A stretch of 55,275 nt of DNA from Candidatus Woesearchaeota archaeon (GCA_016935125.1 JAFGRM010000060.1:1-55275); one strand, 5' to 3'; positions 11,992-51,158 are shown, counted from the first letter of the stretch. Translations and numbers: made by a program. Notes: generated by a model not told the origin, from the letters alone.

Positions 11992-13317
11992 ATGAAGATA
12001 ACAGTCATAGGAACAGGATATGTCGGTCTTGTAGTAGGCACATCGCTTGCAAACCTTGGCAACGAAGTGCTCTGCCTGGACATAGATGACAATAAGATCA
12101 AAAGCCTGAAAAAAGGCATAATCCCTATATACGAGCCAGGGCTTGAAGAGCTGTTCAAGGCAAATGTCATGAACAAAAGGCTCGCCTTTACAACAGATAC
12201 AAAAAATGCGGTCAAGCACGGCCAGGTCATATTTCTTGCAGTAGGTACCCCACCTGGAAAGGGCCATGAAGCAGACCTCTCTTCAGTAAAGGAATGTGCA
12301 AAGAATATAGGAAGATACATTGACAGCTACAAGGTGATAGTAAACAAGAGCACAGTCCCTGTCGGGACTGCTGAGCTTGTAAGGCAGATAATAAAAGACA
12401 ACCAAAAGAGCAGGACCAGCTTTGATGTCGTATCAAACCCTGAATTCCTAAGAGAAGGGGTTGCACTAAAAGACTTTGAGAACCCTGACAGGGTCATAAT
12501 AGGTGTTGAATCTAAAAAAGCCCAACAGATCATGGAGCACATCTACAGGTCGGTTGCAAGGGTCGGAAGGCCGATTATGATAACAGACATCAAGAGTGCA
12601 GAACTGATCAAATACGCTTCAAATTCAATGCTTGCCACACGCATCAGCTTCATGAACATGCTCTCACACCTCTGTGAGAAAGTCGGAGCAGACATAAAAG
12701 AGGTTGCCCATGGCATGGGCCTTGATGACAGGATTGGGCCCAGGTTCCTGCAGGCAGGGATAGGCTATGGCGGAAGCTGTTTTCCAAAGGACATAAGGGC
12801 ACTCATACAGACCATGAAGAACCACGGCTGCAGCTCAAGCCTGCTTGAATGTGTAGACGACATAAATGAGAAGCAGAAACTATCTTTGCTTGCCAAGATA
12901 GAAAAGAATCTCGATATCAAGGGCAGCACCATCGCTGTATGGGGCCTTGCGTTCAAGCCAAAGACCGACGACATAAGGGAAGCGCCGTCGATAGTCCTGA
13001 TAAAGGAGCTTGTCAAGCGTGGTGCCAGGATCAGGGCATATGACCCTAAAGCTGTAAAAAACGCAAAAGATGCGCTAAAATCCCAGGACATTGAATTCTG
13101 TGCTGGCTCTAATGAGGCAATAAAAGGCGCAGATGCCCTGGTTGTCGTAACAGAATGGGATGAGTTCAGAAACATCGACCTTGATAATCTCAAATCCGTC
13201 ATGAATAAGCCCATTGTGATCGATGGAAGGAACATATATGATTCCTCTGAGATGAAAGCAAATGGCATAAGATACATCTCTGTAGGAAGGGGTGAAGATA
13301 CATATATGGACACGTAG
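11992..13317 (+). CDS. ugd: UDP-glucose 6-dehydrogenase
   Basis: MKITVIGTGYVGLV Rossmann N-terminus, catalytic GGSCFPKDIRAL, 441 aa. Confidence 0.88.
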   Translation: MKITVIGTGYVGLVVGTSLANLGNEVLCLDIDDNKIKSLKKGIIPIYEPGLEELFKANVMNKRLAFTTDTKNAVKHGQVIFLAVGTPPGKGHEADLSSVKECAKNIGRYIDSYKVIVNKSTVPVGTAELVRQIIKDNQKSRTSFDVVSNPEFLREGVALKDFENPDRVIIGVESKKAQQIMEHIYRSVARVGRPIMITDIKSAELIKYASNSMLATRISFMNMLSHLCEKVGADIKEVAHGMGLDDRIGPRFLQAGIGYGGSCFPKDIRALIQTMKNHGCSSSLLECVDDINEKQKLSLLAKIEKNLDIKGSTIAVWGLAFKPKTDDIREAPSIVLIKELVKRGARIRAYDPKAVKNAKDALKSQDIEFCAGSNEAIKGADALVVVTEWDEFRNIDLDNLKSVMNKPIVIDGRNIYDSSEMKANGIRYISVGRGEDTYMDT

Positions 13318-13319
13318 GT

Positions 13320-14291
13320 ATGATCCAAAATAAAATGGAAACAGTCCTTGTTAGCGGCGGTGCAGGCTTCATAGGAAGCCATACATGTGAAAAGCTTATC
13401 CAGCTCGGCTATCGTGTTCTTTGCATCGACAACCTCAATGATTACTATGACCCAAGATTCAAGCAACAGAACCTTGCCAAACTGAAAAAGAGCAAGAGCT
13501 TCAGCTTCTACAAAGCCGACATCTGCAACAGGAGTGAGATGGGCAAGCTATTCTCTAAAAACAGGATTGACAGGATAATACACCTGGCAGCAAGAGCTGG
13601 CGTAAGGCCATCGATTGAAGATCCTGGATTATATGCAAAGGTCAACATATCCGGAACAATAAACCTGCTTGAAGAGGCAAGGAAAAACAGCATAAAGTAT
13701 TTCGTGTTCGGGTCGAGCTCAAGCGTCTATGGCAACTGCAGGGAAGTCCCTTTTAGTGAAGATATGCAGCTGGATAGGCCGATCTCGCCTTACGCTGCGA
13801 CAAAAAAGGCAGGAGAGCTCATCTGCTATGCATACCATCACCTATACAACATCAACATAAGCTGCCTGCGGTTCTTCACAGTATACGGGCCAAGGGGAAG
13901 GCCGGACATGGCACCATACAAGTTCTTGAGCAGGATAGCAGAAGGAATCCCTATAGATATGTATGGTGATGGCAGCACGAGCAGGGACTACACCTATGTA
14001 GCAGACATTGTCGACGGCATAATCGCATCTATGGAGAGGCTTGACGGATACCAGATATTTAACCTTGGCAATTCAAACCCAATCACACTCTCTGAGTTCA
14101 TAGCTGTAATAGAGAGTGTTACTGGCAAACAGGCTGTGATAAAAAGGGAGAAGATGCAGCCAGGCGACGTCGACACCACCTACTCAGACATAACAAAGGC
14201 AGCAAGGATGCTGGGATACAGGCCAAAGGTCCAATTCAGGGAAGGCATCAGCATGATGTATGACTGGCTCAAAAACCACGACAAAAGATAA
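13320..14291 (+). CDS. UDP-glucuronate 4-epimerase-like extended SDR
   Basis: GGAGFIGSH, IDNLNDYYDP, SSSSVYG, PYAATKKAGE (YxxxK) and RFFTVYGPRGRPDMA match the UDP-GlcA 4-epimerase pattern. Confidence 0.75.
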   Translation: MIQNKMETVLVSGGAGFIGSHTCEKLIQLGYRVLCIDNLNDYYDPRFKQQNLAKLKKSKSFSFYKADICNRSEMGKLFSKNRIDRIIHLAARAGVRPSIEDPGLYAKVNISGTINLLEEARKNSIKYFVFGSSSSVYGNCREVPFSEDMQLDRPISPYAATKKAGELICYAYHHLYNINISCLRFFTVYGPRGRPDMAPYKFLSRIAEGIPIDMYGDGSTSRDYTYVADIVDGIIASMERLDGYQIFNLGNSNPITLSEFIAVIESVTGKQAVIKREKMQPGDVDTTYSDITKAARMLGYRPKVQFREGISMMYDWLKNHDKR

Positions 14292-14535
14292 CACCATAAA
14301 CCCCATATGTAGTGGCGATAGCATGCATATATTATATACATTATATACATCTCATGCAGCATAAAGAAGTATCTCTGCCGCATCTTATTGGCATGTATTG
14401 TATGCATATCGCGCGCAACATCACACACCCAAAGATGCCAATGTTGCATAAAGTTTTTAAATGGACTTCAAATAGTCAGATACAGTAAGGCAATAGGTAT
14501 TTATTAGAGATTTATGTATGCAGGGGACGGAAAAG

Positions 14536-15474
14536 ATGTCATCATTTTTAGTAACAGGAGGCGCAGGTTTCATAGGCTCAAACATCTGTGAGGAGCTCAT
14601 AAGGCGCGGGCATAAGGTCAGGGTAATCGATGACCTCTCAACAGGGAACATCGACAACATAAAGGGTATCTTAAGCAAGATAGAGTTTATCAATGACAGC
14701 ATATGCAACGCCGATGCTATAAAAAAGGCATGCTGCGGAATGGACTTCGTGCTCCACCAGGCAGCAATACCCTCTGTCCCAAGGTCTGTGAAGGATCCGC
14801 TCACATCAAACCATGTGAACATAGACGGCACATTAAACGTCCTCCTAGCAGCAAGGGACTCTGGAGTCAGGAAGGTCGTGTTCGCTGCATCATCTTCAGC
14901 ATACGGCGAATCTGAGAGCCTTCCTAAAAAAGAAGAGATGAAGCCTATGCCACTCTCGCCATATGCAATCTCAAAACTGGCTGGTGAGCATTACTGCAAG
15001 GTTTTCTGTGACCTATATGGCATAGAGACTGTCTCGCTAAGGTATTTCAATGTCTTTGGGCCGAAACAAGACCCTGCATCAGAATACGCTGCAGTCGTGC
15101 CAAAGTTCATCAGCTCAATCCTGGCAGGAAGGCAGCCTCTGATATACGGAGACGGGCTGCAGACAAGGGATTTCACTTTCATAAAGAATGTGGTTGAGGC
15201 AAACATCCTCTGCACAGAAAGAAAGCTCCATGGAGAAGTGCTTAACATCGCAACAGGCAGCAGGATCACCCTGATAAGGCTCGTTGAGATGCTCAACAGC
15301 ATAATTGGCAGTGACATTGAACCTGAGCTTGGCGATGAGAGGGAAGGTGATATCAGGCATTCGCTGGCTGACATAAGCCTTGCAGAAAAGGTCATAGGAT
15401 ACAGGCCAAAAATATGCGTAGAGGAAGGGTTAAAAGAAACAGTAAGATGGTTCAAGAACAAAAAAAGCAGCTGA
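14536..15474 (+). CDS. UDP-GlcNAc/GlcNAcA 4-epimerase (WbpP/TviC-like)
   Basis: MSSFLVTGGAGFIGSN, SPYAISKLAGE, RYFNVFGPKQDP and GDGLQTRDFTF. The ATG at 14536 (versus 14518) fits the usual epimerase N-terminus and a TATA-like TATTTATTA about 30 nt upstream. Confidence 0.75.
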   Translation: MSSFLVTGGAGFIGSNICEELIRRGHKVRVIDDLSTGNIDNIKGILSKIEFINDSICNADAIKKACCGMDFVLHQAAIPSVPRSVKDPLTSNHVNIDGTLNVLLAARDSGVRKVVFAASSSAYGESESLPKKEEMKPMPLSPYAISKLAGEHYCKVFCDLYGIETVSLRYFNVFGPKQDPASEYAAVVPKFISSILAGRQPLIYGDGLQTRDFTFIKNVVEANILCTERKLHGEVLNIATGSRITLIRLVEMLNSIIGSDIEPELGDEREGDIRHSLADISLAEKVIGYRPKICVEEGLKETVRWFKNKKSS

Positions 15475-16757
15475 AGGATATCAGGATCTGTGTAGTGGGG
15501 CTTGGGTATGTAGGGCTACCCTTGGCAGTAGAGTTCGGCAAACTGCAAAAGGTTATAGGCTTTGACATCAATAAAAAAAAGCTTGACGAGCTCAGGGAAG
15601 GGACAGACTCGACAGGAGAGATGACAAGCCAAGAGCTGAAAAAGGCAGATATAGAATACACTTCTGATGAAAAAAAGATAGGTGATGCGAACTTTATCAT
15701 AGTTGCAGTGCCTACGCCGATTACTAAAGCCCATGCCCCTGACACATCCTACCTTGAATCATCATCCAGGATCATAGGTAAGAACATCAAAAAAGGAACT
15801 ATAGTTGTCTATGAGAGCACTGTCTATCCTGGCGCCACTGAAGAGGTCTGTGTACCTATAATAGAAAAGGCCTCTGGCCTTAGATGCGGAAAAGACTTCA
15901 AGGTGGGCTACAGCCCTGAAAGGATCAACCCAGGCGACAAGGAGCACACTGTTAAAAATATCGTAAAGGTGGTCTCCGGCATGGACGAAGGATCCAGAGA
16001 AACGATCGCCATGGTATATGGGTCGATAATAAGAGCAGGTGTGTTCAAGGCAGCAGACATAAAGACTGCAGAGGCTGCAAAGGTAATAGAAAACATCCAG
16101 CGGGATCTCAATATCGCGCTCATGAATGAGCTCTCACTGATCTTTGAGAGGATAGGGATAAACACAAAAGATGTCATCGAGGCTGCTGGGACAAAATGGA
16201 ACTTCCACAAATACCATCCCGGGCTTGTAGGCGGCCACTGCATAGGTGTTGACCCGTATTATCTCACATACAAGGCGCAGGAATTAGGCTACCAGCCCCA
16301 GATAATCCTTGCAGGGCGGGCAATCAACGAGCACATGGCAAAGCATGTTGCAGAGCTTGTGGTAAAGGGACTGAGCAAGGCAGGAAAGGTGCTAAAAGAA
16401 AGCAAGGTTCTCCTGCTCGGACTCACGTTTAAGGAGAATGTCAGGGATTCAAGGAACTCAAAGGCAAAAGACCTGATAAGGGAGCTTGAAAAGTTCAATA
16501 TCAGCGTCATAGGATGCGACCCGTGTCTTTCAGATGAAGAGGTCAAAAGGATCTTCAATGTCAAAAACATCTGCTTAGAGAACCTAAAAGGCAAGGTTGA
16601 CTGTGTTATCCTAGCAACACCCCATGACATATTCAAGAAGATAACATTAGAGAAGATGAGGTCAATCATGACAGAGAAACCTGTGCTTGTCGACGTAAAA
16701 TCATTGTTCGGAAAGATTAGCGCAGAAAAGGCAGGGTTCATCTACAGCTCGTTATAG
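15447..16757 (+). CDS. UDP-N-acetyl-hexosamine 6-dehydrogenase (WbpO/TviB-like)
   Basis: ICVVGLGYVGLPLA and catalytic GGHCIGVDPYYL. The ATG at 15447 overlaps the upstream epimerase by 28 nt. Confidence 0.75.
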   Translation: MVQEQKKQLKDIRICVVGLGYVGLPLAVEFGKLQKVIGFDINKKKLDELREGTDSTGEMTSQELKKADIEYTSDEKKIGDANFIIVAVPTPITKAHAPDTSYLESSSRIIGKNIKKGTIVVYESTVYPGATEEVCVPIIEKASGLRCGKDFKVGYSPERINPGDKEHTVKNIVKVVSGMDEGSRETIAMVYGSIIRAGVFKAADIKTAEAAKVIENIQRDLNIALMNELSLIFERIGINTKDVIEAAGTKWNFHKYHPGLVGGHCIGVDPYYLTYKAQELGYQPQIILAGRAINEHMAKHVAELVVKGLSKAGKVLKESKVLLLGLTFKENVRDSRNSKAKDLIRELEKFNISVIGCDPCLSDEEVKRIFNVKNICLENLKGKVDCVILATPHDIFKKITLEKMRSIMTEKPVLVDVKSLFGKISAEKAGFIYSSL

Positions 16758-16762: not shown

Positions 16763-17671
16763 ATGATTTGGATAGGAAAAATGCCTGCAAAAGACGATGA
16801 AAAAAGGGACAGGAAAGGCTTCTCAGTAGTCATCCCGGTATTCAATGAAGAAGCATCAATAAAAGAGACAGTCGAAAAGCTAAGGAAAGTGCTTGATTCG
16901 ACAGGCAAGGATTATGAGATCATAATAATCAACGATTGCTCGACAGACAGGACTGCAAAGATAATCGAGAGGATAGATGGGATAGAGATAATCACACATA
17001 CCATCAACAAGGGATACGGCTATTCGCTGAAGGATGGGATAAGAAAAGCAAGATATGAGACTATAGTCATGACTGACGGAGATGGAACATACCCCTGCAG
17101 CCCTATCCCTGAGATGCTCGAACTCTCAAAAGGCCATGAGATAGTAAGCGGGATGAGGGTTGGCAAAGGCGCAAAGATCCCTCTGCTCAGAAGGCCTGCA
17201 AAGTTCATCCTGACACAGCTTGCGAACTTCCTTGTAGGGATGAAGATCCCTGACCTGAACTGCGGCCTGAGGGTCATAAAGAAAAGCGATGTAACAAGAT
17301 ACTTCAGGATACTGCCGGACAGGTTCTCTTTTACAACAACTCACCTGCTCTCGTGCATTGCAGACAGCGGCAGGATAAGGTTCGTTAAGATTGAGTATTA
17401 CAAGCGTGCGGGAAAATCCACAATACACCCTGTAAAGGATTTTTTGAGGTTCATAAATATCATCTTCAAAGAGGGCCTGCTGATCAACCCTATAAAATTT
17501 TTCTCGCTAATATCCGGCTTGTTTGTCCTTCTTGCAATACTGGTCTTCATCTACAGCATGGCCTTTCTCGGCGAGATCATGGACATAAGCATAGTTGTAC
17601 TATTTGTCGGGGCTGTGCAGATATTTCTTTTTGGGATGCTTGCTGACCTTATCATAAGGAAGATCAAATAG
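16763..17671 (+). CDS. GT2 glycosyltransferase, polyprenyl-phosphate hexose synthase type (DPM1/GtrB/ArnC/AglD-like)
   Basis: FSVVIPVFNEE, IINDCSTD and MTDGDG (DxD) with two C-terminal TM helices. Confidence 0.7.
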   Translation: MIWIGKMPAKDDEKRDRKGFSVVIPVFNEEASIKETVEKLRKVLDSTGKDYEIIIINDCSTDRTAKIIERIDGIEIITHTINKGYGYSLKDGIRKARYETIVMTDGDGTYPCSPIPEMLELSKGHEIVSGMRVGKGAKIPLLRRPAKFILTQLANFLVGMKIPDLNCGLRVIKKSDVTRYFRILPDRFSFTTTHLLSCIADSGRIRFVKIEYYKRAGKSTIHPVKDFLRFINIIFKEGLLINPIKFFSLISGLFVLLAILVFIYSMAFLGEIMDISIVVLFVGAVQIFLFGMLADLIIRKIK

Positions 17672-17791: not shown

Positions 17792-19633
17792 TCAACTGTA
17801 TCTCTTTCTTACTTTGCCGTCCCTAAGGTCTATTGTCCTTGTGAATCTCAGCCTGGAGCCGTCCCTGAGCCCTGCTAGGTTTTTTGCAGGCACATAATCA
17901 CCCTGCAGCTCAAGCTCTATTGGCTGGAAATACATCGACTGCGGCACGTATCTTACAAAGAACTCGTCGCCGATCTTCAGCTTCTTAAAAGGCTTCTTTG
18001 AGTTGTTGCAGATCTCATCATTCACAGTGATCTGGCTGTTCTTGTCATCAAAATCAACAGTCCTCCTGAAACTGACAGGTGACCTCTTGTTACCGAATAT
18101 GATAAGGTTCCTGATCATGCCCTTAAGCTTATAAGAGAGATATGTGTTGGCGCCGACAGTAAGCATGACTGACCTAAAGAGCATTCCCTTGTAAGGGCTG
18201 AATACCTTCTCAGGGACAGTATTAAGCTTTCCCTGTACCACAACCTGGCCATCCCTGACCTCTGTCTTGTAATCCTTGTCGACCCACTGGCTGGTGTAGG
18301 TGCTGCTGTTCATCTGGCCTATTATCCCATTGTCATTGAACACAAGCCTGTTGTCCTTGTCAAATATCTTGATAACGCCGCCCTTTGCCATGTTCTCAAT
18401 AAAATAATAATCACTGCCTTTCCTTACATAGTACCTTCCATGCGGGAAATGCCTTGTGAACTGGCTTTCTTCATAAGGCATAAGAGGGCGCTTCGCTGCA
18501 GGCCTTTTGCCGTAATCGATATACGACTCAAGGAGCTCAGGTATCCTGTATAGGAAATAGCGGTCTGCCTGTATCTGCGGCGGGACAAGCTTCCCTTCAG
18601 AGAGCCCTGCAAGCATCCTGTCAGCAACAACTGAAGCGATTGGTATCTTCGACGAGAAATACTCGCATCCATGCGGATAGAAATGGAGCGTCTGTCTTGA
18701 GCCCATGCTTCCTGCATAATAGTTATTTGGATAGACGAAATATTTCAGGAACCCTACAGACTTTTCTGCTGTCTCAAGTATCTTTTTGTCAGGGTTGAGC
18801 TTGTACAGCTTTGCAAGGAAGCTCACTGTTGCTGAGAGGTAGCCCAGATCAGCCCCATCATACTCAAGCGACCATCCCTCTTTTGAGACAAGCCTGTAAA
18901 AATAGTTGATCTTGTCCCTGTAATAGTTAAGGAGCCTCTTGTCTTTCAGAAGGTCATAAGCATGGTATATCGGCATGAACGCCATCGCGTGATGGTTCGC
19001 AAGGATGCCTTCCTCGTCATACTTGCCAAGGAAAACCGCAGCTTTCCTGCAGGTCTCAAGGAACCTGTCCTTAAACGAGCTTGACATCGAGTCGCCTACA
19101 AGCCTGTATGACTGTGCCATGGAATAAAGAAGGAATCCTGTAGGTCCTGCCCAGCCGCGCTCGTTAGGATAAAACTCATCAAAAGAGCCGTCGCTGTGCT
19201 GGATCCTTGTCCAGTAGTCCATCGCTGCAAGCGTCCATCTTTTTATCTTTTCCTTCCTGTAATAGATGCTCCCTGGAAATGGGTATGAATAGACAAGCGC
19301 AAGGGACTGTGTGCCGAACTGCGGAAGCGCATTTACAAAGTCATCGCTCTTGTCGAGCCAGAATGTCCTCTGGAATGAGCCATATGTCTTTGAAAACTCG
19401 TTCCTGTTGAGAAGGCTCAGGAGACGCGGGATCATGATCAGGGCCTTGTCTGAATATACTGCCCTATCGCTGCTGGATACTGCCCTATTGCTGCTGCCGG
19501 ATGCAGGAGACTTGCTGGCTGTAACAGTGCTGTTGGATGCAAGAGCTTTGCCGGCTGTAACAGTTCTATTGGATGCAAGAGCCATTCTGGCTGCAAGCGT
19601 GTTGCCTGATGTAAGAGCATTTGCGCGTTTCAT
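17792..19633 (-). CDS. hypothetical 613-aa protein: repeat-rich N-terminus, helical toroid-like middle, beta-rich C-terminus
   Basis: No family recognised. Motif IQHSDGSFDEFYPNERGWAGPTGFLLYSMA resembles (alpha/alpha)-barrel repeats. The codon at 19639 is TTG; the ATG at 19633 lies 27-34 nt from a TATATAAA box (19660-19667). Confidence 0.6.
   Translation of the reverse strand: MKRANALTSGNTLAARMALASNRTVTAGKALASNSTVTASKSPASGSSNRAVSSSDRAVYSDKALIMIPRLLSLLNRNEFSKTYGSFQRTFWLDKSDDFVNALPQFGTQSLALVYSYPFPGSIYYRKEKIKRWTLAAMDYWTRIQHSDGSFDEFYPNERGWAGPTGFLLYSMAQSYRLVGDSMSSSFKDRFLETCRKAAVFLGKYDEEGILANHHAMAFMPIYHAYDLLKDKRLLNYYRDKINYFYRLVSKEGWSLEYDGADLGYLSATVSFLAKLYKLNPDKKILETAEKSVGFLKYFVYPNNYYAGSMGSRQTLHFYPHGCEYFSSKIPIASVVADRMLAGLSEGKLVPPQIQADRYFLYRIPELLESYIDYGKRPAAKRPLMPYEESQFTRHFPHGRYYVRKGSDYYFIENMAKGGVIKIFDKDNRLVFNDNGIIGQMNSSTYTSQWVDKDYKTEVRDGQVVVQGKLNTVPEKVFSPYKGMLFRSVMLTVGANTYLSYKLKGMIRNLIIFGNKRSPVSFRRTVDFDDKNSQITVNDEICNNSKKPFKKLKIGDEFFVRYVPQSMYFQPIELELQGDYVPAKNLAGLRDGSRLRFTRTIDLRDGKVRKRYS
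19456..19617. repeat. tandem repeats: 2 x 21 bp (19456-19497) and 3 x 36 bp (19510-19617)
   Basis: Read directly from the sequence. The 36-bp units encode ALTSGNTLAARM / ALASNRTVTAGK / ALASNSTVTASK. The region is open in several frames on both strands. Confidence 0.85.
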
Positions 19634-42817: not shown

Positions 42818-42830
42818 CAAGGTGTCCAAT

Positions 42831-43616: not shown

Positions 43617-43626
43617 TACACTTAAA

Positions 43627-44676: not shown

Positions 44677-45317
44677 AAGTTCTTGTTGTTGCTGCACACC
44701 CAGATGATGAAATCCTTGGGGTTGGGGGGGCACTCATCAAACATCATTGCCAAGGAGATGATATTTATGTATGCATGGTCACAAAAGCGTATGAGCCGGA
44801 GTGGTCCAAGAAATATATCAAAACAAAAAAGGATGAAGCATCAAAAGTCGACAGGCTATTAGGGATAAAAAAGAGATATTACTGCGATTTCCCAACTGTA
44901 AAATTAAATACAATTCCTCATGGAGAATTCAATAGAAAAATCGCAGAGATTATCAACGAGACATGCCCGGATGTTATCTACACACATTTCAAGAATGATG
45001 TTAACTTAGACCACAGGATAATATTCAACGCTGTGATGGTTGGGGCAAGGCCGGGCAACAGACAGATAGGAATAATCTGTTTTGAGACACCCTCATCAAC
45101 AGAATGGAGTAATGTTCCGTTCCACCCAAACCATTATGTGGATATCAAAGAGCATCTAGACAAGAAGGTAAAGGCTTTTTCGTTATATAAATCAGAGGTA
45201 AAGGCCTACCCACACCCCAGAAGCGAAAAAGGCATAAGGATATGGGCGAACAAAAGAGGGGTTGAGGTCTGCAGAGAATATGCAGAAGCATTTATTATAA
45301 TCAGGAGTTACTGGTAA
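44673..45317 (+). CDS. PIG-L/LmbE-family N-deacetylase
   Basis: VVAAHPDDEILGVGG motif and HLDH-type NLDHR. Strong SD AGAGGAGGA. ATGA overlap with the upstream gene. Confidence 0.8.
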   Translation: MKVLVVAAHPDDEILGVGGALIKHHCQGDDIYVCMVTKAYEPEWSKKYIKTKKDEASKVDRLLGIKKRYYCDFPTVKLNTIPHGEFNRKIAEIINETCPDVIYTHFKNDVNLDHRIIFNAVMVGARPGNRQIGIICFETPSSTEWSNVPFHPNHYVDIKEHLDKKVKAFSLYKSEVKAYPHPRSEKGIRIWANKRGVEVCREYAEAFIIIRSYW

Positions 45318-45318: not shown

Positions 45319-46068
45319 ATGAGAATAGTATGGCTTTCTGCGAACAGGCTGGGTTATGAAACCCTAAAAGAAGCAGTAAAGATAAAAGATGCTGACATAG
45401 TAGGCATCATAACGCTCAGCAGCGATTTCAATACAAAGATGTATGATGGAATCCCAACCAAAGAGTGGAGCAGATTCGGAACAAAGGTCTACGAAATAAG
45501 CAAGATTAACCAGGAAAGAAAGCTCCTTGCGGAGATTGCGCCAGACATCATCATCATGTGCGGCTGGAGACAAATCATAGACAAGAGCATCTTAAGGATA
45601 CCTAAAAAAAGTGTGATAGGTTTTCATCCGACGCTGCTTCCTAAGGGCAGGGGTCCTGCACCGATAATAAACTCAATCCTAAACGGGTTTGTGACATCAG
45701 GAGTGACCATGTTTTATGTTGATGAAGGGCTCGACAACGGCGACATCATCGGACAGGTAAGGTTCAAAATAGAGAAAAACGATCATGCCTCAGATGTATA
45801 CAATAAGGTCATAACCTCCGGCAAGGAGCTGATAAGAGACTACCTGCCGAAGATAATCAAGGAGTGTGCACCGCGAATTAAGCAGGATGAGTCAAAAGCG
45901 ACGGTTTTTAAAAAGCCCTTATTATCGAGCAACGAGATAAACCCTGAGACTGACTCAATCGAAGAAATTTCAAAAAAAATCAAGGCATTATCAAGACCAT
46001 ACGAAGGAGCATACATAAGAAAAAATGGTAAAAGACTTATCATATGGGAGGCAGAGCTGATAGAATGA
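45319..46068 (+). CDS. formyltransferase (Fmt/ArnA-N-like, N- and C-terminal domains)
   Basis: VIGFHPTLLPKGRGPAPI and VDEGLDNGDI, plus a C-terminal Fmt-like domain. By my manual alignment the usual catalytic Asn is Gly here. Confidence 0.75.
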   Translation: MRIVWLSANRLGYETLKEAVKIKDADIVGIITLSSDFNTKMYDGIPTKEWSRFGTKVYEISKINQERKLLAEIAPDIIIMCGWRQIIDKSILRIPKKSVIGFHPTLLPKGRGPAPIINSILNGFVTSGVTMFYVDEGLDNGDIIGQVRFKIEKNDHASDVYNKVITSGKELIRDYLPKIIKECAPRIKQDESKATVFKKPLLSSNEINPETDSIEEISKKIKALSRPYEGAYIRKNGKRLIIWEAELIE

Positions 46069-47210
46069 GAAATATCTGCATAGTAACAGGAACCAGGTCA
46101 GAATATGGGCTATTAAAACCGGTCATTGACAAGATAATCTCTTCAGGCATACTCAAACTTTCATTAATCGTCGCAGGGATGCACTTATCAAGAGAGTTTG
46201 GCTATACCGCAAGGGATATTGAGAATGATGGAATTAGAGTGGATGCAAAGGTCATAATGAACCCTGAAGAAGACACAGGCTTATCTATGGCAAACGCTAT
46301 AGGTAAGGGCATCTGCGGTATGGCTGCCGCCCTCAACAGGATAAAACCTGACATAATCGTCGTGCTTGGAGACAGGATTGAAGCTCTCTCTGCTGTAGTA
46401 GCTGGAGCATTCATGAACATCCCAATTGCACATATACATGGTGGGGACAGTGCTAAAGCTGGTCTTGATGAATCAGTAAGGCATGCTATAACAAAGTTTG
46501 CACACATACATTTCCCTGCTACAAGAAAGAGCGCTGAAAGGATAGTCAAGATGGGTGAGGACAAGTGGAGAATATTCTGTGTAGGAGCACCAGGTCTTGA
46601 TACAATACTAAATAAAAAGCTCCTTGACAGGAAAGACCTCGAAAAGGAACTAGGAATCTCGCTAAGAGGACAGGTAATTCTGTTGGTTCAACATCCAGTA
46701 ACAACAGAGATTGAAAATGCTGAGCATGATATAACAGAAACGCTTGAAGGGGTCAGAAATTTAGGTATTAAGACAATAGCAATCTACCCCAACTCTGATG
46801 CAGGTGGGCGAAAGATAATCAAAAAGATAAAAGAATATGAAAAAAAAGGGATACTGAAAGCATATAAGAGCCTATCTCACAAGACATACCTGAGCCTACT
46901 CAAACATACATCTGTCATGGTGGGCAACTCAAGCAGTGGAATAATCGAGTCTTCATCCTTTGGGCTCCCTGTAGTGAACATAGGCATCAGGCAGGAAGGC
47001 CGGGAAAGAGCCTACAACGTGATAGATACGGCAAACGACAGAGAAAGCATCAGAAAATCAGTCAATAAAGCATTGAGCCAAGATTTCAAGAAGAACATAT
47101 GTCCCTGCAATAACCCATATGGCGACGGGAAAGCTGCTGAAAGGATAACCAAAGTCTTAAGCGAGATCAGGCTAGACAATAAACTAATACAAAAGAAGTT
47201 GACATATTGA
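46065..47210 (+). CDS. hydrolysing UDP/GDP-N-acetylhexosamine 2-epimerase (NeuC/LegG-like)
   Basis: ICIVTGTRSEYGLLKPV, VVLGDRIE and AHIHGGD. The ATG at 46065 forms an ATGA overlap with the upstream stop. Confidence 0.8.
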   Translation: MRNICIVTGTRSEYGLLKPVIDKIISSGILKLSLIVAGMHLSREFGYTARDIENDGIRVDAKVIMNPEEDTGLSMANAIGKGICGMAAALNRIKPDIIVVLGDRIEALSAVVAGAFMNIPIAHIHGGDSAKAGLDESVRHAITKFAHIHFPATRKSAERIVKMGEDKWRIFCVGAPGLDTILNKKLLDRKDLEKELGISLRGQVILLVQHPVTTEIENAEHDITETLEGVRNLGIKTIAIYPNSDAGGRKIIKKIKEYEKKGILKAYKSLSHKTYLSLLKHTSVMVGNSSSGIIESSSFGLPVVNIGIRQEGRERAYNVIDTANDRESIRKSVNKALSQDFKKNICPCNNPYGDGKAAERITKVLSEIRLDNKLIQKKLTY

Positions 47211-47215
47211 TAAAA

Positions 47216-47626
47216 ATGGGAAAAGAAGAAAGATTTGAAAGATGGGTAATGCCTGAGATAAAGGAAGGCGAACTGACAAAATGGAACTGGATGGTCCAAA
47301 ACAAAGAAGGGCTTGTACTCGGCAAGAACACCGACATCGGCGCTTTCACATATCTGAACGCCCTAAATGGTATTGAGATAAACGATAATGTCCAGATAGG
47401 CAGCCATTGTTCAATATATAGCATAAGCACAATCGATGGTAAAAATGGTAAGGTCACGATCAAGAAGAACGCTTGTATAGGCTCTCACAGCATAGTTATG
47501 CCAGGAGTTACAATCGGCGAGAATTCAATTATTGGTGCGTTCAGTTTTGTAAATAGAGACATCCCTAAAGATGTCATCGCGATGGGTGTGCCTGTAAAGG
47601 TTATCAAAAAAATAGACAATAGGTAA
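47216..47626 (+). CDS. left-handed beta-helix N-acetyltransferase (LegH/PseH-role candidate)
   Basis: Hexapeptide repeats IGSHCSIYS, IGSHSIVMPGVTIGENSIIGAFSFV. 47207 is TTG; ATG at 47216. Confidence 0.7.
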   Translation: MGKEERFERWVMPEIKEGELTKWNWMVQNKEGLVLGKNTDIGAFTYLNALNGIEINDNVQIGSHCSIYSISTIDGKNGKVTIKKNACIGSHSIVMPGVTIGENSIIGAFSFVNRDIPKDVIAMGVPVKVIKKIDNR

Positions 47627-47634: not shown

Positions 47635-48780
47635 ATGGAATGGAAAATACCTTTATTCAGGATAAACAATGAGGAAACTGATATCAAAGCAGTTACAGAT
47701 ATTATCAGAAGGGGAAGCTACTGGACAACAGGTCCGGAGATAAAGGAATTTGAGAGCAAGATAGCAGAATATGTAGGAAAGAAGTATGCGCTTACCTTCA
47801 ACTCAGGAACATCTGCACTCCATACCCTTCTGCTCGCCCATTCAGTAAGTGGAGGAGAAATTATCGTGCCTTCATTCACATTTATCTCAACCGCAAACGC
47901 AGTTGTGCTTGCAGGCGCACGGCCAGTTTTCGCTGAATCTGAACCTGATACCCTCGGGCTTGATGTGAAAGATGTGAAGAAACGGATTACCCCAAAGACA
48001 AAAGCGGTTATAGCGATAGACTACGGCGGCTGTATATGCAGGGATATAGATAGATTAAGAGAACTCTGCAGGGAAAAAAACATCCAGCTTATTGAGGATG
48101 CAGCTGAGTCTTTCGGATCAACTGCCAAAGACAGGATGGCTGGCTCATTGTCAGATTCAGCCATATTCTCTTTCTGTCAAAACAAGATTATAACAACAGG
48201 TGAAGGCGGTGCAGCAGTTACAGATTCCAAGGAGATATACGAGAAAATGAAGCTTATCAGATCACATGGTAGAATTGAGAATGATCAGGGCTACTTCTCA
48301 AACCCTGAAGACAGCGATTATATCGATATAGGCTACAATTACAGAATGTGTAGCATAACAGCCTCAATAGGACTTTCCCAGATTAACAGGGTTGACAAAA
48401 TTATCATGGAACGGAGGAGCATAGCCAAAGAATACAACGAAGCATTTTCAAAAATAAAAGAGATAAAGACCCCTAGCGAGCCACCTGGTTTTAAGCATGT
48501 CTATCAGATGTACAGCATACTGATAAATAAAAAAACAAAAAGAGATGCATTAAAGAAGCATCTGGAAAAAAACGGTGTGATGGTAAAAGTATATTTTAAT
48601 CCTGTACATCTCAAGACATATTATATGAAAAGATTCAACTACCACATAGGAGACCTTCCTTTTACAGAAGACATCTCAAACAGGGTGTTATCTTTGCCGA
48701 TTTATCCGGGCATAAAAAAAGAGGACCTGAAGTTCATAATTAATATTATAAATGATTTTTTCAGAAAAAGCACAAGGTGA
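47635..48780 (+). CDS. DegT-type PLP aminotransferase (LegC/PseC-like)
   Basis: IPLFRINNEE, FSFCQNKII (PLP Lys) and LSLPIYP. Confidence 0.8.
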   Translation: MEWKIPLFRINNEETDIKAVTDIIRRGSYWTTGPEIKEFESKIAEYVGKKYALTFNSGTSALHTLLLAHSVSGGEIIVPSFTFISTANAVVLAGARPVFAESEPDTLGLDVKDVKKRITPKTKAVIAIDYGGCICRDIDRLRELCREKNIQLIEDAAESFGSTAKDRMAGSLSDSAIFSFCQNKIITTGEGGAAVTDSKEIYEKMKLIRSHGRIENDQGYFSNPEDSDYIDIGYNYRMCSITASIGLSQINRVDKIIMERRSIAKEYNEAFSKIKEIKTPSEPPGFKHVYQMYSILINKKTKRDALKKHLEKNGVMVKVYFNPVHLKTYYMKRFNYHIGDLPFTEDISNRVLSLPIYPGIKKEDLKFIINIINDFFRKSTR

Positions 48781-48786
48781 ACAGCT

Positions 48787-49809
48787 ATGAAAAACATCTT
48801 CAAAGACAAGACAATCCTCGTGACAGGAGGGTGCGGCTCAATCGGTTCCGAGATAGTAAGGCAACTGCTTAAGTTCAATCCAAAAGTCATAAGGATATTC
48901 GACCATGACGAAGCAGGACATTTCAGGCTTAACCAGTCGCTTAAGGTAGATGACCCTGAAAAGACAAGAAATCTCATTGGGGATATCACTGACAGGGATA
49001 GGGTATTTAGGGCCATGGAGGATGTTGACATTGTGTTCCATGCAGCTGCTCTAAAACATGTCCCTTTCTGTGAATATAACCCTTTCGAAGCTGTTAAGAC
49101 GAATGTGATAGGTACACAGAACCTTGTCGACGCGGCAATAAAAGAAAATGTCGATATATTCGTAGGCATAAGCACTGACAAGGCTGTCAATCCCATCAAC
49201 ACAATGGGGGCTACAAAGCTCCTTGCTGAAAAGATAATAACAAACGCCCCAATAGGGAAGAGTCTTGTCAAGTTCTGTTGTGTCCGATTCGGAAATGTGC
49301 TGAATTCCTCCGGATCAGTAATCCCAATCTTCCTAAAAGAAATTGAAGAAGGGTACTCGATAAGTATAACATCAGAAAAGATGACCCGTTTTTTCATGAG
49401 CCTGCACGACTCTGTATCCCTTGTTATAAAAGCTGCAGAACTAACAGAGATGGGAGAGGTCTTTATCTTGAAGATGAACGCTATAAATATCAAAGACCTA
49501 GCCGAAGTGCTTGTAGAGGAGCTTGCACCAAGATTCAAGAAGAATCCAAAAGATTACATATACAACACAATAGGTGTTAGACCAGGTGAAAAGATGCATG
49601 AGTCTCTTATGGTCGATGAAGAAGTTAGGTATATGACCGAGAAAGAGGATATGTTCATACTCCGCAACTCGCTCCTTGCCCATTATTCATCAAAAAATGG
49701 CAGAGTGGCTGCCAAATGGGAAGAGGGTCAGGAATATAATTCTGAAAATGCGCCACTGCTTAACAAAGAACAGATCAGAAAAACACTCAAAGAAGACGGG
49801 ATAATATGA
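48787..49809 (+). CDS. NDP-N-acetylglucosamine 4,6-dehydratase (Polysacc_synt_2: PseB/LegB/PglF-like)
   Basis: KTILVTGGCGSIGSE, HAAALKHVP and STDKAVNPINTMGATKLLAEK. Confidence 0.8.
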   Translation: MKNIFKDKTILVTGGCGSIGSEIVRQLLKFNPKVIRIFDHDEAGHFRLNQSLKVDDPEKTRNLIGDITDRDRVFRAMEDVDIVFHAAALKHVPFCEYNPFEAVKTNVIGTQNLVDAAIKENVDIFVGISTDKAVNPINTMGATKLLAEKIITNAPIGKSLVKFCCVRFGNVLNSSGSVIPIFLKEIEEGYSISITSEKMTRFFMSLHDSVSLVIKAAELTEMGEVFILKMNAINIKDLAEVLVEELAPRFKKNPKDYIYNTIGVRPGEKMHESLMVDEEVRYMTEKEDMFILRNSLLAHYSSKNGRVAAKWEEGQEYNSENAPLLNKEQIRKTLKEDGII

Positions 49810-51158
49810 AGATAAAAGCAAATAATTGTGATATGATAAACGTACTAGTCATACAATGGATGAATAAGAAAGACCTGGCACCATTAAGGGAGTATATAAA
49901 AAATAAAGATACAAAGATAAGGTTAGTCAATTTTGATGAGGTATATTCTGTAAAGTATGACTATCAGAGAAGGTTCTTAAGATACTGGTCGCAACTAAAA
50001 AGGTTCAATTTAAAGAAATTGGGCATTTATTTCAATTTTATAATAAATTCTTATATCAAAAAAAATTATTCTTATAGCTTTGACAATGTCAGAAAGCTTG
50101 CAATAATGGGGCTATCATTTAAGGATTATAATAAGATTATAAAGAATAATAATATCCGGGCGATAATGATATATAGGGATGACCCTTGGCTTAACAACAT
50201 CATTCTATTCTCAAAAAGGATAGGCATAAAGGTCATCATATTGAACAACGAGCATGTCTTCGGTGAATCTGAGACAACAATCAAGGTTGTCAAATCGCTT
50301 CCTTGTAGGGGAGACCTGATTCTTGTAGGAGGAGAATCCGGAAAAAAATACTGGTCTCATTCAATAGGCATAAACAAAGAAAAGATCAAGATAGTGGGCG
50401 TATCAAGGTTTGATGCTTATCAGTCAAAAGGATACATGAGTAGAAGTGAATTCTGTAATATTTTAGGCTTGGATCAAAAGAAAAAGATAGTGTTTTTTCC
50501 ATCATTCATTAACCAATATGACCTCTATGTATATGGCCTCACAAAGTCTTCTTTGACCATGACATACAAGCCAGAAGACCTAGATTTCTGTTGGCCAATC
50601 AAGGAAACAATAAATGTCAACATGGAAAAGTATAAGGAAGACAAGATGAAACTGCTTTTTGATATTGCCAAAGAAAACAAAAATATCCAGATCATAATAA
50701 AACTTCATCCTGACCAGCAGGCAAACGAAGAGCACTGCGTAAAGCACGAGCTCATGGCAATGAACAGAGTTTTACCTAATTTTGTCGGAATCCCCGGCAT
50801 ACCAAATAGGATAACTGCCCCAGACATAATAATCAACTCAGATGTGATTGTAGGCCATGGCAGCACAATGCTTCTCGAGGCAATAATTGCAAATAAAACC
50901 ATCCTACCTACACAGTGGGATCTGCCAAACAATGAATTCCGTCTTCCAATTATTGAAAGAAAAACCTGCGAAGATGTCACAGGTAAGGATATGTTCAAGA
51001 AGAAGTTATTTAAAATATTAAGGGATGGTGAAGATGTAAAAAGGTTTGAGAAAGGAAGAAAAGAACTGATTGAGTACTACTTCGGCAAGCAGGACGGCCA
51101 GTCATGCGAAAGGATAGTAAAAGAGATAGAAAAAGAGTTTTCAAATGCAAAAGACTAA
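49806..51158 (+). CDS. hypothetical TagF/KpsS-like GT-B protein (candidate CMP-nonulosonate transferase)
   Basis: The pattern IVGVSRFD ... KKKIVFFPSF ... IIIKLHPDQ ... NSDVIVGHGSTMLLEA resembles Glyphos_transf/Capsule_synth families. ATGA overlap with the dehydratase stop. Function inferred. Confidence 0.45.
   Translation: MKIKANNCDMINVLVIQWMNKKDLAPLREYIKNKDTKIRLVNFDEVYSVKYDYQRRFLRYWSQLKRFNLKKLGIYFNFIINSYIKKNYSYSFDNVRKLAIMGLSFKDYNKIIKNNNIRAIMIYRDDPWLNNIILFSKRIGIKVIILNNEHVFGESETTIKVVKSLPCRGDLILVGGESGKKYWSHSIGINKEKIKIVGVSRFDAYQSKGYMSRSEFCNILGLDQKKKIVFFPSFINQYDLYVYGLTKSSLTMTYKPEDLDFCWPIKETINVNMEKYKEDKMKLLFDIAKENKNIQIIIKLHPDQQANEEHCVKHELMAMNRVLPNFVGIPGIPNRITAPDIIINSDVIVGHGSTMLLEAIIANKTILPTQWDLPNNEFRLPIIERKTCEDVTGKDMFKKKLFKILRDGEDVKRFEKGRKELIEYYFGKQDGQSCERIVKEIEKEFSNAKD

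Follow-up and report, generated by a model that had tools for sequence, protein, structure and literature searches.

A 34-gene mosaic glycan locus from a probable DPANN archaeon and its lyase-fold cassette

The metagenomic contig JAFGRM010000060.1 (positions 1-55275; GCA_016935125.1, Candidatus Woesearchaeota archaeon), whose full 55,275 nt were analyzed and are called the window here, carries between positions 11992 and 51158 an uninterrupted run of 34 genes, numbered g1 to g34, that are devoted almost entirely to glycans. We find that this locus is a mosaic of at least six known modules around a core of ~13 kb common to related genomes, that is, a new combination and not a new kind of system. 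Its unexpected element is a family of lyase-fold proteins, represented by g6, together with the cassette in which they are encoded; both are abundant in DPANN archaea and in bacteria of the Candidate Phyla Radiation (CPR), have no curated family, and appear to be distinct from the archaeal epimerase Agl32. As a whole, the locus would direct the synthesis of an envelope glycan by two assembly routes, one through a cytoplasmic oligosaccharide and one through a lipid carrier, with an N-glycan as the acceptor, a reading that we regard as moderately probable. An initial annotation of the same DNA had suspected an undescribed surface-polymer system, but nearly every module maps to a described pathway.

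Organization of the locus

The listing of open reading frames (ORFs) in the window, evaluated by script, gave 34 consecutive genes that fill 37,341 of the 39,167 nt between positions 11992 and 51158 (~95%), with many 4-nt overlaps, a widest intergenic gap of 246 nt and no unrelated ORF breaking the run. An arrangement of 34 glycan genes in a row cannot be a product of chance. The genes fall into modules A (g1-g5), B (g6-g10), C (g11-g15), D (g16-g19, on the minus strand), E (g20-g23), and F (g24-g34). Pfam and NCBIfam profiles placed 33 of the 34 proteins in glycan or sugar-tailoring families instead of scattering many of them over non-glycan families, the exception being g6.

The 39-kb uninterrupted archaeal run of 34 glycan genes described in the initial annotation is therefore real. 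Its further statement that every ORF has a plausible glycan role holds by family for 33 genes and could not be read from sequence for g6, which has neither a Pfam nor an NCBIfam family and owes its proposed role solely to the modelled fold and the neighboring genes; moreover, g8, g9, g18, g25, and g26 belong to generic families, and their link to glycans comes only from context. The inventory of enzyme classes was recovered almost unchanged: three UDP-sugar dehydrogenases (g1, g4, and g14) with the motifs GGSCFPKD, GGHCIGVDP, and GGHCIPVYP exactly as quoted; five short-chain dehydrogenases/reductases (SDRs), four of them extended (g2, g3, g15, and g33) and one classical (g26); three DegT aminotransferases (g12, g16, and g32) and one of class III (g25); two methyltransferases (g8 and g9), a B12-radical S-adenosylmethionine (SAM) enzyme (g18), and an amidotransferase fusion (g20; GATase-WbuX); glycosyltransferases (GTs) of families GT2 (g5) and GT4 (g19) and two of the PMT_2-type GT-C class (g10 and g22); a Wzx-type MOP flippase (g23); two MprF-flippase-like proteins, which are the LPG_synthase_TM proteins g7 and g21; and a complete nonulosonate operon (g24-g33). 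Where four left-handed beta-helix acetyltransferases had been counted, only three, all of the hexapeptide type, were found (g11, g17, and g31).

Since the closest relatives of the locus genes are only 40-64% identical, the locus is not a copy, near-identical or otherwise, of a characterized cluster. Paralogues inside it are only 23-39% identical to each other, and DNA identical to the window was met only as this very contig in one public sequencing run, SRR13394437.

A conserved cassette for lipid-borne sugars

The genes that handle lipid-linked sugars are the following (TM, transmembrane segment; Dol-P, dolichyl phosphate).

16763..17671, plus strand: g5, GT2, polyprenyl/dolichyl-phosphate sugar synthase (Pfam Glycos_transf_2; best NCBIfam matches AglJ, Dol-P-hexose transferase, ArnC, and PpgS)
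17792..19639, minus strand: g6, lyase/epimerase-fold protein, alpha/alpha toroid plus beta-sandwich (AlphaFold2 model; family without curation)
19792..20742, minus strand: g7, MprF-type flippase-like membrane protein (LPG_synthase_TM 127 bits; TIGR00374 93 bits, above cut-off; ~8-9 TM)
20841..21626, minus strand: g8, SAM-dependent methyltransferase, cassette partner of g6 (Pfam Methyltransf_11 85 bits)
21780..22520, plus strand: g9, second SAM-dependent methyltransferase (Pfam Methyltransf_11 40 bits, above cut-off)
22585..24423, plus strand: g10, GT-C glycosyltransferase of PMT_2/ArnT type (PMT_2 46.8 bits, cut-off 26.1; ~12 TM; GGDDSEY after TM1)
36389..37348, minus strand: g21, second MprF-type flippase-like protein (LPG_synthase_TM 158 bits; TIGR00374 109 bits)
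37531..39078, plus strand: g22, second GT-C glycosyltransferase (PMT_2 37.4 bits, cut-off 26.1; ~10 TM; LLDDGVYY after TM1)
39158..40669, plus strand: g23, Wzx-type (MOP) lipid-linked oligosaccharide flippase (Polysacc_synt_3 33 bits, cut-off 23; polytopic membrane protein)

The g5 protein gave full-length matches to the solved ArnC, GtrB, and Pyrococcus dolichyl-phosphate mannose synthase (DPMS), and its C terminus is hydrophobic, with one or more TM segments. In g10 and g22 the DD motifs follow TM1, which places an acidic motif in the first outer loop as expected of GT-C enzymes; a sequence search of g7 and g10 against solved structures returned no match. As in agl clusters, a Dol-P-dependent glycosyltransferase (g5, by its AglJ and Dol-P-hexose matches) is accompanied by flippase candidates (g23 and the flippase-like g7 and g21).

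The surroundings of the lyase-fold gene were surveyed in 80 metagenomic loci encoding g6 relatives and in eight more from exact look-ups. Neighbors were classified by profiles made from the window's own proteins, with the methyltransferase profile built without lyase-fold/methyltransferase fusions, and shares were computed over the 27 non-redundant loci that extend at least 4 kb to either side of the lyase-fold gene.

GT2 within 4 kb: 85% of loci
Flippase-like protein within 4 kb: 74%
Flippase-like protein within 8 kb: 81%
GT-C within 8 kb: 74%
Methyltransferase within 8 kb: 59%
Extended SDR within 8 kb: 44%
B12-radical SAM enzyme within 8 kb: 22%

The GT2 gene stands directly upstream of the lyase-fold gene, on the same strand, in 15 of the 27 loci, and GT2, flippase-like, and GT-C genes are all found within 8 kb of it in 17. 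The usual order, on one strand, is GT2, lyase-fold protein, (methyltransferase), flippase-like protein, and GT-C, and in 6 of 88 cases the methyltransferase is fused to the lyase-fold ORF. The conserved flippase partner is an LPG_synthase_TM protein (TIGR00374, "flippase-like"), for which this role is predicted, and not a member of a known flippase class such as GtrA, ArnE/F, AglR, or Wzx. A literature search yielded no description of the cassette or of its LPG_synthase_TM partners.

Three DPANN-type contigs (L014, L020, and L025), of which one is from a Woesearchaeota metagenome-assembled genome (MAG) and the others measure 922 kb and 262 kb, share a series that runs from an NFACT gene to ugd and the epimerase, lyase-fold, (methyltransferase), GT2, TviB-like dehydrogenase, B12-radical SAM, and GT-C genes. 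This core spans ~13 kb, with identities to the window of 31-61%; a flippase-like gene was recognized in two of the three, L014 and L025 (the MAG and the 922-kb contig). The NFACT gene lies 2-3 kb upstream of ugd in all three, whereas in the window it is found at the opposite, far end of the 39-kb locus. The site seems to be conserved, with its content expanded and rearranged in the window, which holds the same core in another order and modules C to F as additions.

Other contexts widen the picture. In a groundwater contig (L015, 13002-14801) the lyase-fold cassette lies ~8 kb from a gene for a 938-aa STT3/AglB protein, with Wzx, GT4, and GT2 genes between the two, and in another locus a polysaccharide deacetylase and a hexapeptide transferase occupy the position of the tailoring enzymes. 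There may be a wider grammar, "GT2, tailoring enzyme, flippase-like protein, GT-C," in which amidotransferases, deacetylases, and radical SAM enzymes are interchangeable, and g20-g21-g22 may be a second such unit without a GT2 of its own.

The scheme resembles known ones. ArnC and ArnT use it, a sugar being loaded onto polyprenyl phosphate and then transferred by a GT-C enzyme, and ArnD and NaxD tailor sugars on the undecaprenyl-phosphate carrier. The succession predicted here, of loading by a GT2 of DPM1/ArnC/GtrB type, flipping, and GT-C transfer, is that of Haloferax AglD/R/S, ArnC/D/EF/T, RgtE with RgtA-D/F, and GtrA/B/C. In Haloferax, a sugar carried by Dol-P is attached on the cell exterior through AglD, AglR, and AglS (PMC3871713), while RgtE of Rhizobium is a bactoprenyl-phosphate-galacturonic acid (GalA) transferase working with the GalA transferases RgtD and RgtF (PMC7663294), a logic that fits the ugd and UDP-glucuronate 4-epimerase genes upstream of g5. 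In contrast to all these systems, the flippase candidate of the window is an LPG_synthase_TM protein instead of GtrA, ArnEF, or AglR, and the tailoring enzymes, which the known systems lack, are a lyase/epimerase-fold protein and a methyltransferase that in some cases forms part of it; a B12-radical SAM gene is often close by. We propose, tentatively and with more doubt than conviction, that the cassette g5-g10 is a widespread envelope pathway of the ultra-small DPANN and CPR organisms in which a uronate is C5-epimerized or 4,5-eliminated and methylated on polyprenyl phosphate, flipped, and attached outside.

The lyase/epimerase-fold protein g6

No Pfam or NCBIfam family matched g6 above threshold, Pec_lyase reaching only an E value of 0.005, and no PDB entry matched it by sequence; a profile of 30 homologues gave only chance-level matches to complement C4. 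One search found 968 relatives, every one annotated as hypothetical. Identity is ~50% across Woesearchaeota, Peribacteria, Peregrinibacteria, other Patescibacteria, Omnitrophica, and Chloroflexi, and a profile search of 1.84 billion cluster representatives extended the family to at least 987 clusters at E<=1e-30. Because DPANN archaea share this level of identity with CPR bacteria, Chloroflexi, and Omnitrophica, transfer across domains among organisms sharing habitats is suggested. Some relatives, of ~790 aa, carry a methyltransferase domain fused at the C terminus.

An AlphaFold (AF2) model built on 30 homologues (predicted local distance difference test [pLDDT] 90, predicted TM-score 0.91) shows an alpha/alpha toroid followed by a beta-sandwich. 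Its top Foldseek matches in the PDB (TM-score 0.45-0.50, E ~1e-7) are polysaccharide lyases (PLs) of families PL15, PL17, PL33, PL12, and PL8 and dermatan sulfate epimerase 1 (DS-epi1), among them glycosaminoglycan lyases, the PL15 enzyme Atu3025, PL33 enzymes, heparinase III, the PL17 enzyme Alg17c, PL8 enzymes, and the human epimerase. What these best matches have in common is abstraction of the C5 proton of uronic acids. Invariant residues among 30 sequences are N149, H150, Y194, Y201, R249, H253, and Y255, which may correspond to the catalytic His/Tyr, with Asn/Arg neutralizing the carboxylate, at the toroid center of such enzymes; the His-to-Tyr spacing resembles that of PL15/17 enzymes and DS-epi1. 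While g6 has the alpha/alpha-toroid and beta-sandwich architecture of the PL8/12/15/17/33 lyases and DS-epi1, it lacks detectable sequence similarity to any solved one of them and matches no Pfam lyase family above threshold. Neither a signal peptide nor a TM helix was found in g6; since it lacks both, it should act in the cytoplasm, which fits biosynthesis and not degradation. Judged from the model, g6 may act on a lipid-linked uronate as a C5-epimerase or eliminase, an assignment that we hold to be possible but doubtful.

The recently described archaeal glucuronic acid (GlcA) C5-epimerase, Agl32, is a 372-aa protein with a cellobiose-2-epimerase-like barrel and, as reported, little structural similarity to DS-epi1 (PMC12624080, PMC13308652). 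Like Agl32/AglQ, g6 is a soluble alpha/alpha-type protein in a uronate-rich glycosylation cluster; homology between them was considered and set aside on the published description, which points to a different family.

At 19492-19618, a 36-nt tandem repeat of 3.5 copies encodes an N-terminal extension of the g6 ORF (ALASNxTVTAxK) that is present in no homologue. Translation may in truth begin further downstream; otherwise the extension may be a tail peculiar to this lineage.

Supply of uronates and of a diacetamido-uronate

The sugar-supply genes, with the GT4 gene that lies among them, are listed here (GalNAcA, N-acetylgalactosaminuronic acid).

11992..13317, plus strand: g1, Ugd, UDP-glucose 6-dehydrogenase (three UDPG_MGDP_dh Pfam domains; TIGR03026 472 bits, above cut-off; TuaD 550 bits; GGSCFPKD)
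13320..14291, plus strand: g2, extended SDR, probable UDP-glucuronate 4-epimerase, giving UDP-GalA (Pfam Epimerase; Bacillus cereus UDP-GlcA 4-epimerase 6zl6 207 bits, MoeE5)
14518..15474, plus strand: g3, extended SDR, TviC/WbpP-like UDP-GlcNAc(A) 4-epimerase (best NCBIfam TviC 252 bits, below cut-off of 760)
15414..16757, plus strand: g4, TviB/WbpO-like UDP-GlcNAc 6-dehydrogenase (TviB 452 bits, cut-off 592; TIGR03026 410 bits, above cut-off; GGHCIGVDP)
24492..25082, plus strand: g11, hexapeptide N-acetyltransferase, WbpD-like (Pfam Hexapep; NeuD/PglB/VioB subfamily 100 bits, below cut-off)
25079..26173, plus strand: g12, DegT aminotransferase, WbpE-like (Pfam DegT_DnrJ_EryC1 431 bits)
26166..27152, plus strand: g13, GFO/IDH/MocA UDP-GlcNAc(A) 3-dehydrogenase, WbpB-like (NCBIfam archaeal UDP-GlcNAc 3-dehydrogenase 346 bits, cut-off 450)
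27149..28342, plus strand: g14, NDP-sugar 6-dehydrogenase, WbpA/WecC-like (TIGR03026 335 bits, above cut-off; GGHCIPVYP)
28355..29320, plus strand: g15, extended SDR, probable UDP-HexNAc(A) 4-epimerase (Pfam Epimerase; nearest solved relatives GalE-type epimerases, WbgU)
29381..30505, minus strand: g16, DegT aminotransferase (Pfam DegT 356 bits)
30512..31096, minus strand: g17, hexapeptide acetyltransferase (Pfam Hexapep 55 bits)
31229..32638, minus strand: g18, B12-binding radical SAM enzyme, BchE/HpnJ-like (Pfam B12-binding and Radical_SAM; HpnJ 220 bits, below cut-off)
32802..33998, minus strand: g19, GT4 (GT-B) Leloir glycosyltransferase (Pfam Glycos_transf_1 and Glyco_transf_4)
34245..36293, plus strand: g20, class II glutamine amidotransferase with Cys nucleophile, fused to a WbuX-type PP-loop N-acetyl-sugar amidotransferase (Pfam GATase_6/7; TIGR03573 WbuX 157 bits, below cut-off; MCGIFG, SGGRDS)

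From these family matches, g1 and g2 would provide UDP-GlcA and UDP-GalA, g3 and g4 UDP-GalNAcA, and g11-g15 a UDP-2,3-diacetamido-2,3-dideoxy-hexuronate, in which g20 may turn an acetamido into an acetamidino group. The g2 gene begins 2 nt after ugd, and its orthologues, at 46-53% identity, accompany the lyase-fold cassette; UDP-xylose synthase and an ArnA-type decarboxylase were rejected as identities for g2, as UDP-GlcA 4-epimerases match much better. Similarly, the solved relatives of g15 are epimerases, which speaks against a LegB-type 4,6-dehydratase. Genes like g18 recur next to the lyase-fold cassette in other loci. The g3 and g4 ORFs overlap by 61 nt, and because family alignments of g4 begin only at residues 21-24, its true start probably lies ~20 codons downstream of the ORF start.

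The diacetamido-uronate module has the set of 3-dehydrogenase, DegT aminotransferase, hexapeptide acetyltransferase, and 6-dehydrogenase (g11-g14), in one operon, that is known from WbpA/B/D/E of Pseudomonas and from the Methanococcus maripaludis route to UDP-GlcNAc3NAcA (the 2,3-diacetamido derivative). Unlike the Wbp route, it has no non-hydrolyzing 2-epimerase (WbpI/WecB) and carries the SDR epimerase g15 instead. Acetamidino formation of the WbuX/PseA type also relies on a WbuX-type PP-loop amidotransferase, but g20 has a fused class II glutamine amidotransferase as its ammonia source in place of HisH/HisF-like partners. The fused protein, with 7,736 matches at E<=1e-20 that are ~50% identical over the full length, is widespread in CPR bacteria and many archaea, where it usually goes under the name GlmS, AsnB, or hypothetical. 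Its gene follows that of a GT2 of ~290-320 aa in each of the two contexts studied (L100 and L101); an LPG_synthase_TM gene is close by in one of them and a PMT_2 gene in the other. From the Vi-antigen locus (TviB/C/D/E), by comparison, the window has only TviB- and TviC-like genes, both below cut-off (452/592 and 252/760 bits); no locus gene matched the TviD or TviE models of NCBIfam, and the locus does not qualify as a Vi capsule locus.

Most of the predicted sugars, GlcA/GalA, GalNAcA, a possibly amidinated 2,3-diacetamido-uronate, and a legionaminic-type acid, are plausibly acidic. The earlier statement that all building blocks are acidic goes further than this, since most of the scores against specific-enzyme models fall below cut-off and the product of g16 and g17 is unassigned.

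The nonulosonate operon and its candidate transferase

The remaining genes form the nonulosonate operon with g34; two folate genes adjoin it as possible accessory genes (THF, tetrahydrofolate).

40697..41437, plus strand: g24, CMP-nonulosonate synthetase (Pfam CTP_transf_3 94 bits; PseF 166 bits, below cut-off)
41489..42817, plus strand: g25, class III aminotransferase, like glutamate-1-semialdehyde (GSA) aminomutase (Pfam Aminotran_3 142 bits; PRK06209 282 bits, below cut-off)
42822..43616, plus strand: g26, classical SDR, PtmA-like (PRK09186 325 bits, above cut-off; FlagModPtmA 239 bits)
43597..44676, plus strand: g27, nonulosonate synthase, NeuB/LegI type (TIGR03569 428 bits, cut-off 399.65)
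44673..45317, plus strand: g28, PIG-L family de-N-acetylase (Pfam PIG-L 85 bits)
45319..46068, plus strand: g29, N-formyltransferase, Fmt/ArnA-N type (Pfam Formyl_trans_N 85 bits; ArnA N-terminal region 124 bits)
46044..47210, plus strand: g30, hydrolyzing UDP-sugar 2-epimerase, NeuC/LegG type (TIGR03568 449 bits, cut-off 235.9)
47207..47626, plus strand: g31, hexapeptide N-acetyltransferase, PglD/LegH-like (Pfam Hexapep 53 bits)
47635..48780, plus strand: g32, DegT aminotransferase, PglE/LegC/PseC-like (Pfam DegT 370 bits; PseC 314 and LegC 250 bits, both below cut-offs)
48787..49809, plus strand: g33, UDP-GlcNAc 4,6-dehydratase, PglF/PseB/LegB class (Pfam Polysacc_synt_2 345 bits; PseB 307 bits, below cut-off)
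49806..51158, plus strand: g34, candidate nonulosonate transferase of TagB/TagF-fold GT-B type (BFO_1060 91 bits, E 8e-26, cut-off 200; Glyphos_transf 22.8 bits)
51155-51829, minus strand: 5-formyl-THF cyclo-ligase (TIGR02727 122 bits, above cut-off)
51850-52794, plus strand: FolD (THF_DHG_CYH domains)

The NeuC/LegG-type 2-epimerase and the NeuB/LegI-type synthase, the two enzymes that mark a nonulosonate pathway, both score above curated cut-offs; g33, g32, g31, and g24 are in the right families for the legionaminic acid (Leg) pathway, all scoring below specific-enzyme cut-offs. Since a PglF/PglE/PglD-like trio is present and Pfam and NCBIfam found no PseG- or PseH-type gene in the window, the gene set points to a Leg rather than a pseudaminic acid (Pse) type of product, a 5,7-diamino acid that g24-g33 would deliver in CMP-activated form. 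The deacetylase gene g28 and the formyltransferase gene g29 are 1 nt apart, and their products probably replace an N-acetyl by an N-formyl group. The adjoining FolD and cyclo-ligase may supply the formyl donor, as far as can be judged from their position. The 5' region of the cyclo-ligase ORF contains a 24-nt tandem repeat of four copies (51624-51719); the annotated start of this ORF is probably too early because the family alignment begins only at residue 76.

The only characterized archaeal precedent for a formyltransferase in a leg operon is Halorubrum sp. PV6, in which 5-N-formyl-legionaminic acid tips an N-glycan that also contains glucuronic acids (PMC6137143). Both loci are archaeal and combine legB/C/G/I/F-type genes with a formyltransferase and a NeuD-type acetyltransferase, and the hexuronic acids of the Halorubrum S-layer N-glycan are a further likeness (PMC6137143). 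Relative to Halorubrum, the window has further genes, namely one for a PIG-L deacetylase beside that of the formyltransferase and others for a class III aminotransferase, a PtmA-like SDR, and a BFO_1060-like transferase. Its host is a DPANN organism and not a haloarchaeon.

For g34, the name "TagF-like" given in the initial annotation did not hold up. Glyphos_transf is barely reached (22.8 versus 22.1 bits), BFO_1060 matches better although below its cut-off, and Pfam revealed no TagD-type or other CDP-alcohol gene in the locus that could supply CDP-glycerol or CDP-ribitol; a TagF/TagB glycerophosphotransferase was rejected on these grounds. In Tannerella forsythia, BFO_1060 and its relatives Tanf_01245 and TFUB4_00887 are needed to add Pse/Leg derivatives to N-acetylmannosaminuronic acid (ManNAcA) (PMC5420450). 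The g34 protein aligns to positions 59-362 of the 365 of the BFO_1060 profile (E 8e-26), has DLD (DXD) and HP motifs, and closes the nonulosonate operon, and the Tannerella acceptor, a ManNAcA-type uronate (PMC5420450), belongs to a sugar class that the window locus could also make. It departs from BFO_1060 in its score (91 versus 200 bits) and in the D/E-D/E-G motif, which was not found in g34. A sequence search of g34 against solved structures gave no match, and its single-sequence AlphaFold model (pLDDT 33) was unusable for fold comparison.

Two predicted assembly routes

The analysis shows the gene content, the family and fold assignments, and the conservation of the cassette; from these we infer the substrates, order of steps, and acceptor of the following scheme. 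In one route, a lipid-linked oligosaccharide would be built in the cytoplasm by the GT4 g19, the candidate g34, and other enzymes encoded elsewhere; this short chain of uronates and diacetamido-uronates would be capped by g34 with an N-formyl legionaminic-type acid and flipped by the Wzx-type g23. In the other, g5 would load a single sugar onto dolichyl or polyprenyl phosphate, most likely GalA, because ugd and the UDP-GlcA 4-epimerase gene lie directly upstream. The lipid-borne sugar would then be tailored by g6 (C5 epimerization or 4,5-elimination) and by g8/g9 (methylation), a flippase-like protein (g7 or g21) would carry the loaded lipid across the membrane, and a GT-C enzyme (g10 or g22) would attach the sugar at the outer surface. 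As the final acceptor we consider an N-glycan of S-layer or pilin proteins most likely, with delivery by an AglB whose gene lies beyond the window. The low number of glycosyltransferases and the "unexplained assembly logic" of the initial annotation are largely accounted for by the lipid-carrier route (g5, the flippase-like proteins, and the GT-C enzymes), since few Leloir enzymes are needed when sugars are added outside the membrane from lipid-phosphate donors.

Several observations weigh against this scheme. The matches to TviB, TviC, the 3-dehydrogenase, WbuX, PseF, PseB, LegC, and BFO_1060 are below curated cut-offs, and as this applies to most of the NCBIfam equivalog scores, the sugar identities are guesses at the level of families. 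As the initial annotation had also noted for the oligosaccharyltransferase and the acceptors, Pfam and NCBIfam detected no STT3/AglB in the 34 genes or the flanks, so that the AglB expected in or beside an agl cluster is absent from the window, and no obvious S-layer or pilin gene is present there; family searches likewise found no initiating phosphoglycosyl transferase in the window. The flippase role of the LPG_synthase_TM proteins is extrapolated from MprF, and the related HpnL is still uncharacterized (bioRxiv 10.1101/2025.07.29.667474). There is only one GT2 for the two pairs of flippase-like and GT-C proteins, and the fold match of g6 is moderate (TM-score 0.45-0.50, 9-13% identity). Because Ugd or a g2-like epimerase is encoded beside the lyase-fold gene in only 19-44% of loci, the sugar of the cassette need not always be a uronate. 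Finally, the GC content is patchy (0.44-0.48 in g1-g9 and 0.37-0.42 in g10-g24), and the modules may for this reason not act as one pathway.

Alternative readings

This last point would also be expected if the 39 kb were a hypervariable region of independent glycan pathways, gained by horizontal transfer and each serving a different surface structure. Such an origin, which overlaps with our preferred reading and does not exclude it, would also explain why the in-locus paralogues are so dissimilar (23-39%), why related genomes carry only the ~13-kb core, and why the g6 and g20 families are ~50% identical to CPR bacterial proteins. We consider it possible but rather doubtful as a full account, given the tight packing with many 4-nt overlaps, the single Wzx and single terminal nonulosonate transferase, and the known archaeal N-glycans that join uronates with a terminal nonulosonate. 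Alternatively, the product might be an acidic polymer that is free or anchored in lipid (for instance a capsule, a chain like teichuronic acid, or a lipoglycan) with no protein-linked N-glycan, in which the GT-C enzymes would act as polymerases, ligases, or decorators and AglB would have no part. A window with neither AglB nor an acceptor protein agrees with this, and a Wzx with two GT-C enzymes resembles Wzx-dependent polysaccharide systems; moreover, TviB/TviC-like genes are best known from the Vi capsule, and the GT-C family includes the lipid- or polymer-acting ArnT and Rgt transferases. We nevertheless judge a polymer unlikely: Pfam and NCBIfam revealed no Wzy, chain-length regulator, ABC exporter, or TviE homologue among the locus genes, a terminal nonulosonate transferase and a single GT4 better fit a short capped oligosaccharide, the related cassette of L015 lies near STT3/AglB, and the closest archaeal precedent bears its N-formyl-legionaminic acid on an N-glycan.

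It would be more surprising still, and seems to us very improbable, if the GT2, lyase-fold, methyltransferase, flippase-like, and B12-radical SAM genes tailored the head group of a membrane lipid, yielding a glycolipid in the manner of hopanoid HpnA/I/J/K/L or lipid A Arn proteins and feeding no glycan. In 74% of loci the cassette is accompanied by a GT-C enzyme, a type that receives its sugar from a lipid-phosphate donor and hands it on, so that the lipid is better seen as a carrier than as the end product, and g5 resembles ArnC, GtrB, DPMS, and AglJ, with no HpnI or HpnB model among its NCBIfam matches at E<=1e-5. What the idea has in its favor is a parallel with the Hpn set, namely an SDR (HpnA), a GT2 (HpnI), a B12-radical SAM enzyme (HpnJ; 220 bits for g18), a deacetylase (HpnK), and an LPG_synthase_TM protein (HpnL), along with the lipid-handling nature of the LPG_synthase_TM domain and the occurrence of the cassette in both DPANN and CPR organisms, which depend on scavenged lipids.

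Implications

DPANN archaea and CPR bacteria have genomes of ~1 Mb and live attached to other cells, their surfaces deciding which hosts are possible, and to our knowledge almost nothing is known of the chemistry of these surfaces. If the genome studied here is near that typical size, a few per cent of it would be taken up by the 39-kb locus, and the outlay on an acidic, sialic-acid-like coat would be large. The cassette is a cloneable target that could reveal a new route to rare uronic acids (iduronate- or altruronate-type, methylated) and could provide evidence that biosynthesis has taken over lyase-fold enzymes in lineages far from animals; if the proposal for g6 is true, it would be the first enzyme of the lyase/DS-epimerase fold to act in biosynthesis on a lipid-linked sugar. 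The analysis also corrects the annotation of two large families, those of g6 and g20, now labelled hypothetical, GlmS, or AsnB.

Flanking genes and minor observations

The left flank encodes PCNA, fibrillarin, Nop56/58, RNase P p30, aIF-2B, and a CoaE-type kinase, and the right flank a 5-formyl-THF cyclo-ligase, FolD, AdoMet decarboxylase, and an NFACT protein. All named relatives of the fibrillarin are from Nanoarchaeota, Woesearchaeota, or Nanobdellota MAGs, at no more than 75% identity, and the nearest named relatives of other window genes are likewise among Woesearchaeota MAGs. Because the flanks carry archaeal informational genes and the fibrillarin relatives are all DPANN-type, the host is, judged by sequence, a Woesearchaeota/Nanoarchaeota-type DPANN archaeon without a close sequenced relative. 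A scan of a genome collection anchored on aIF-2B found only distant relatives (40-58% identity), with no other window gene adjacent.

The left boundary of the locus is marked by a single RNA gene.

11787-11902, minus strand: orphan 5S rRNA gene (Rfam RF00001 82.7 bits)

It borders the glycan locus directly, and neither a 16S nor a 23S gene is nearby; no tRNA gene and no other non-coding RNA were found in the window. Further to the left, a 356-aa protein with ~8 TM (9797-10867, plus strand) was considered as an initiating transferase or prepilin peptidase and rejected, since no family matched it even at E<=5; what is left is a likeness in motif, between its AGDAKLY and the GxGDxK of A24 prepilin peptidases. 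A cyclophilin-type prolyl isomerase with an N-terminal hydrophobic segment (171-851, minus strand) is probably exported, and the plus-strand ORF at 162-728 that overlaps it looks spurious. The AdoMet decarboxylase (53055-54041, plus strand) has two AdoMet_dc stretches, and two neighboring PRC-barrel proteins (4519-5558, minus strand) are encoded between the gene for fibrillarin and that for a DedA/VTT-domain membrane protein.

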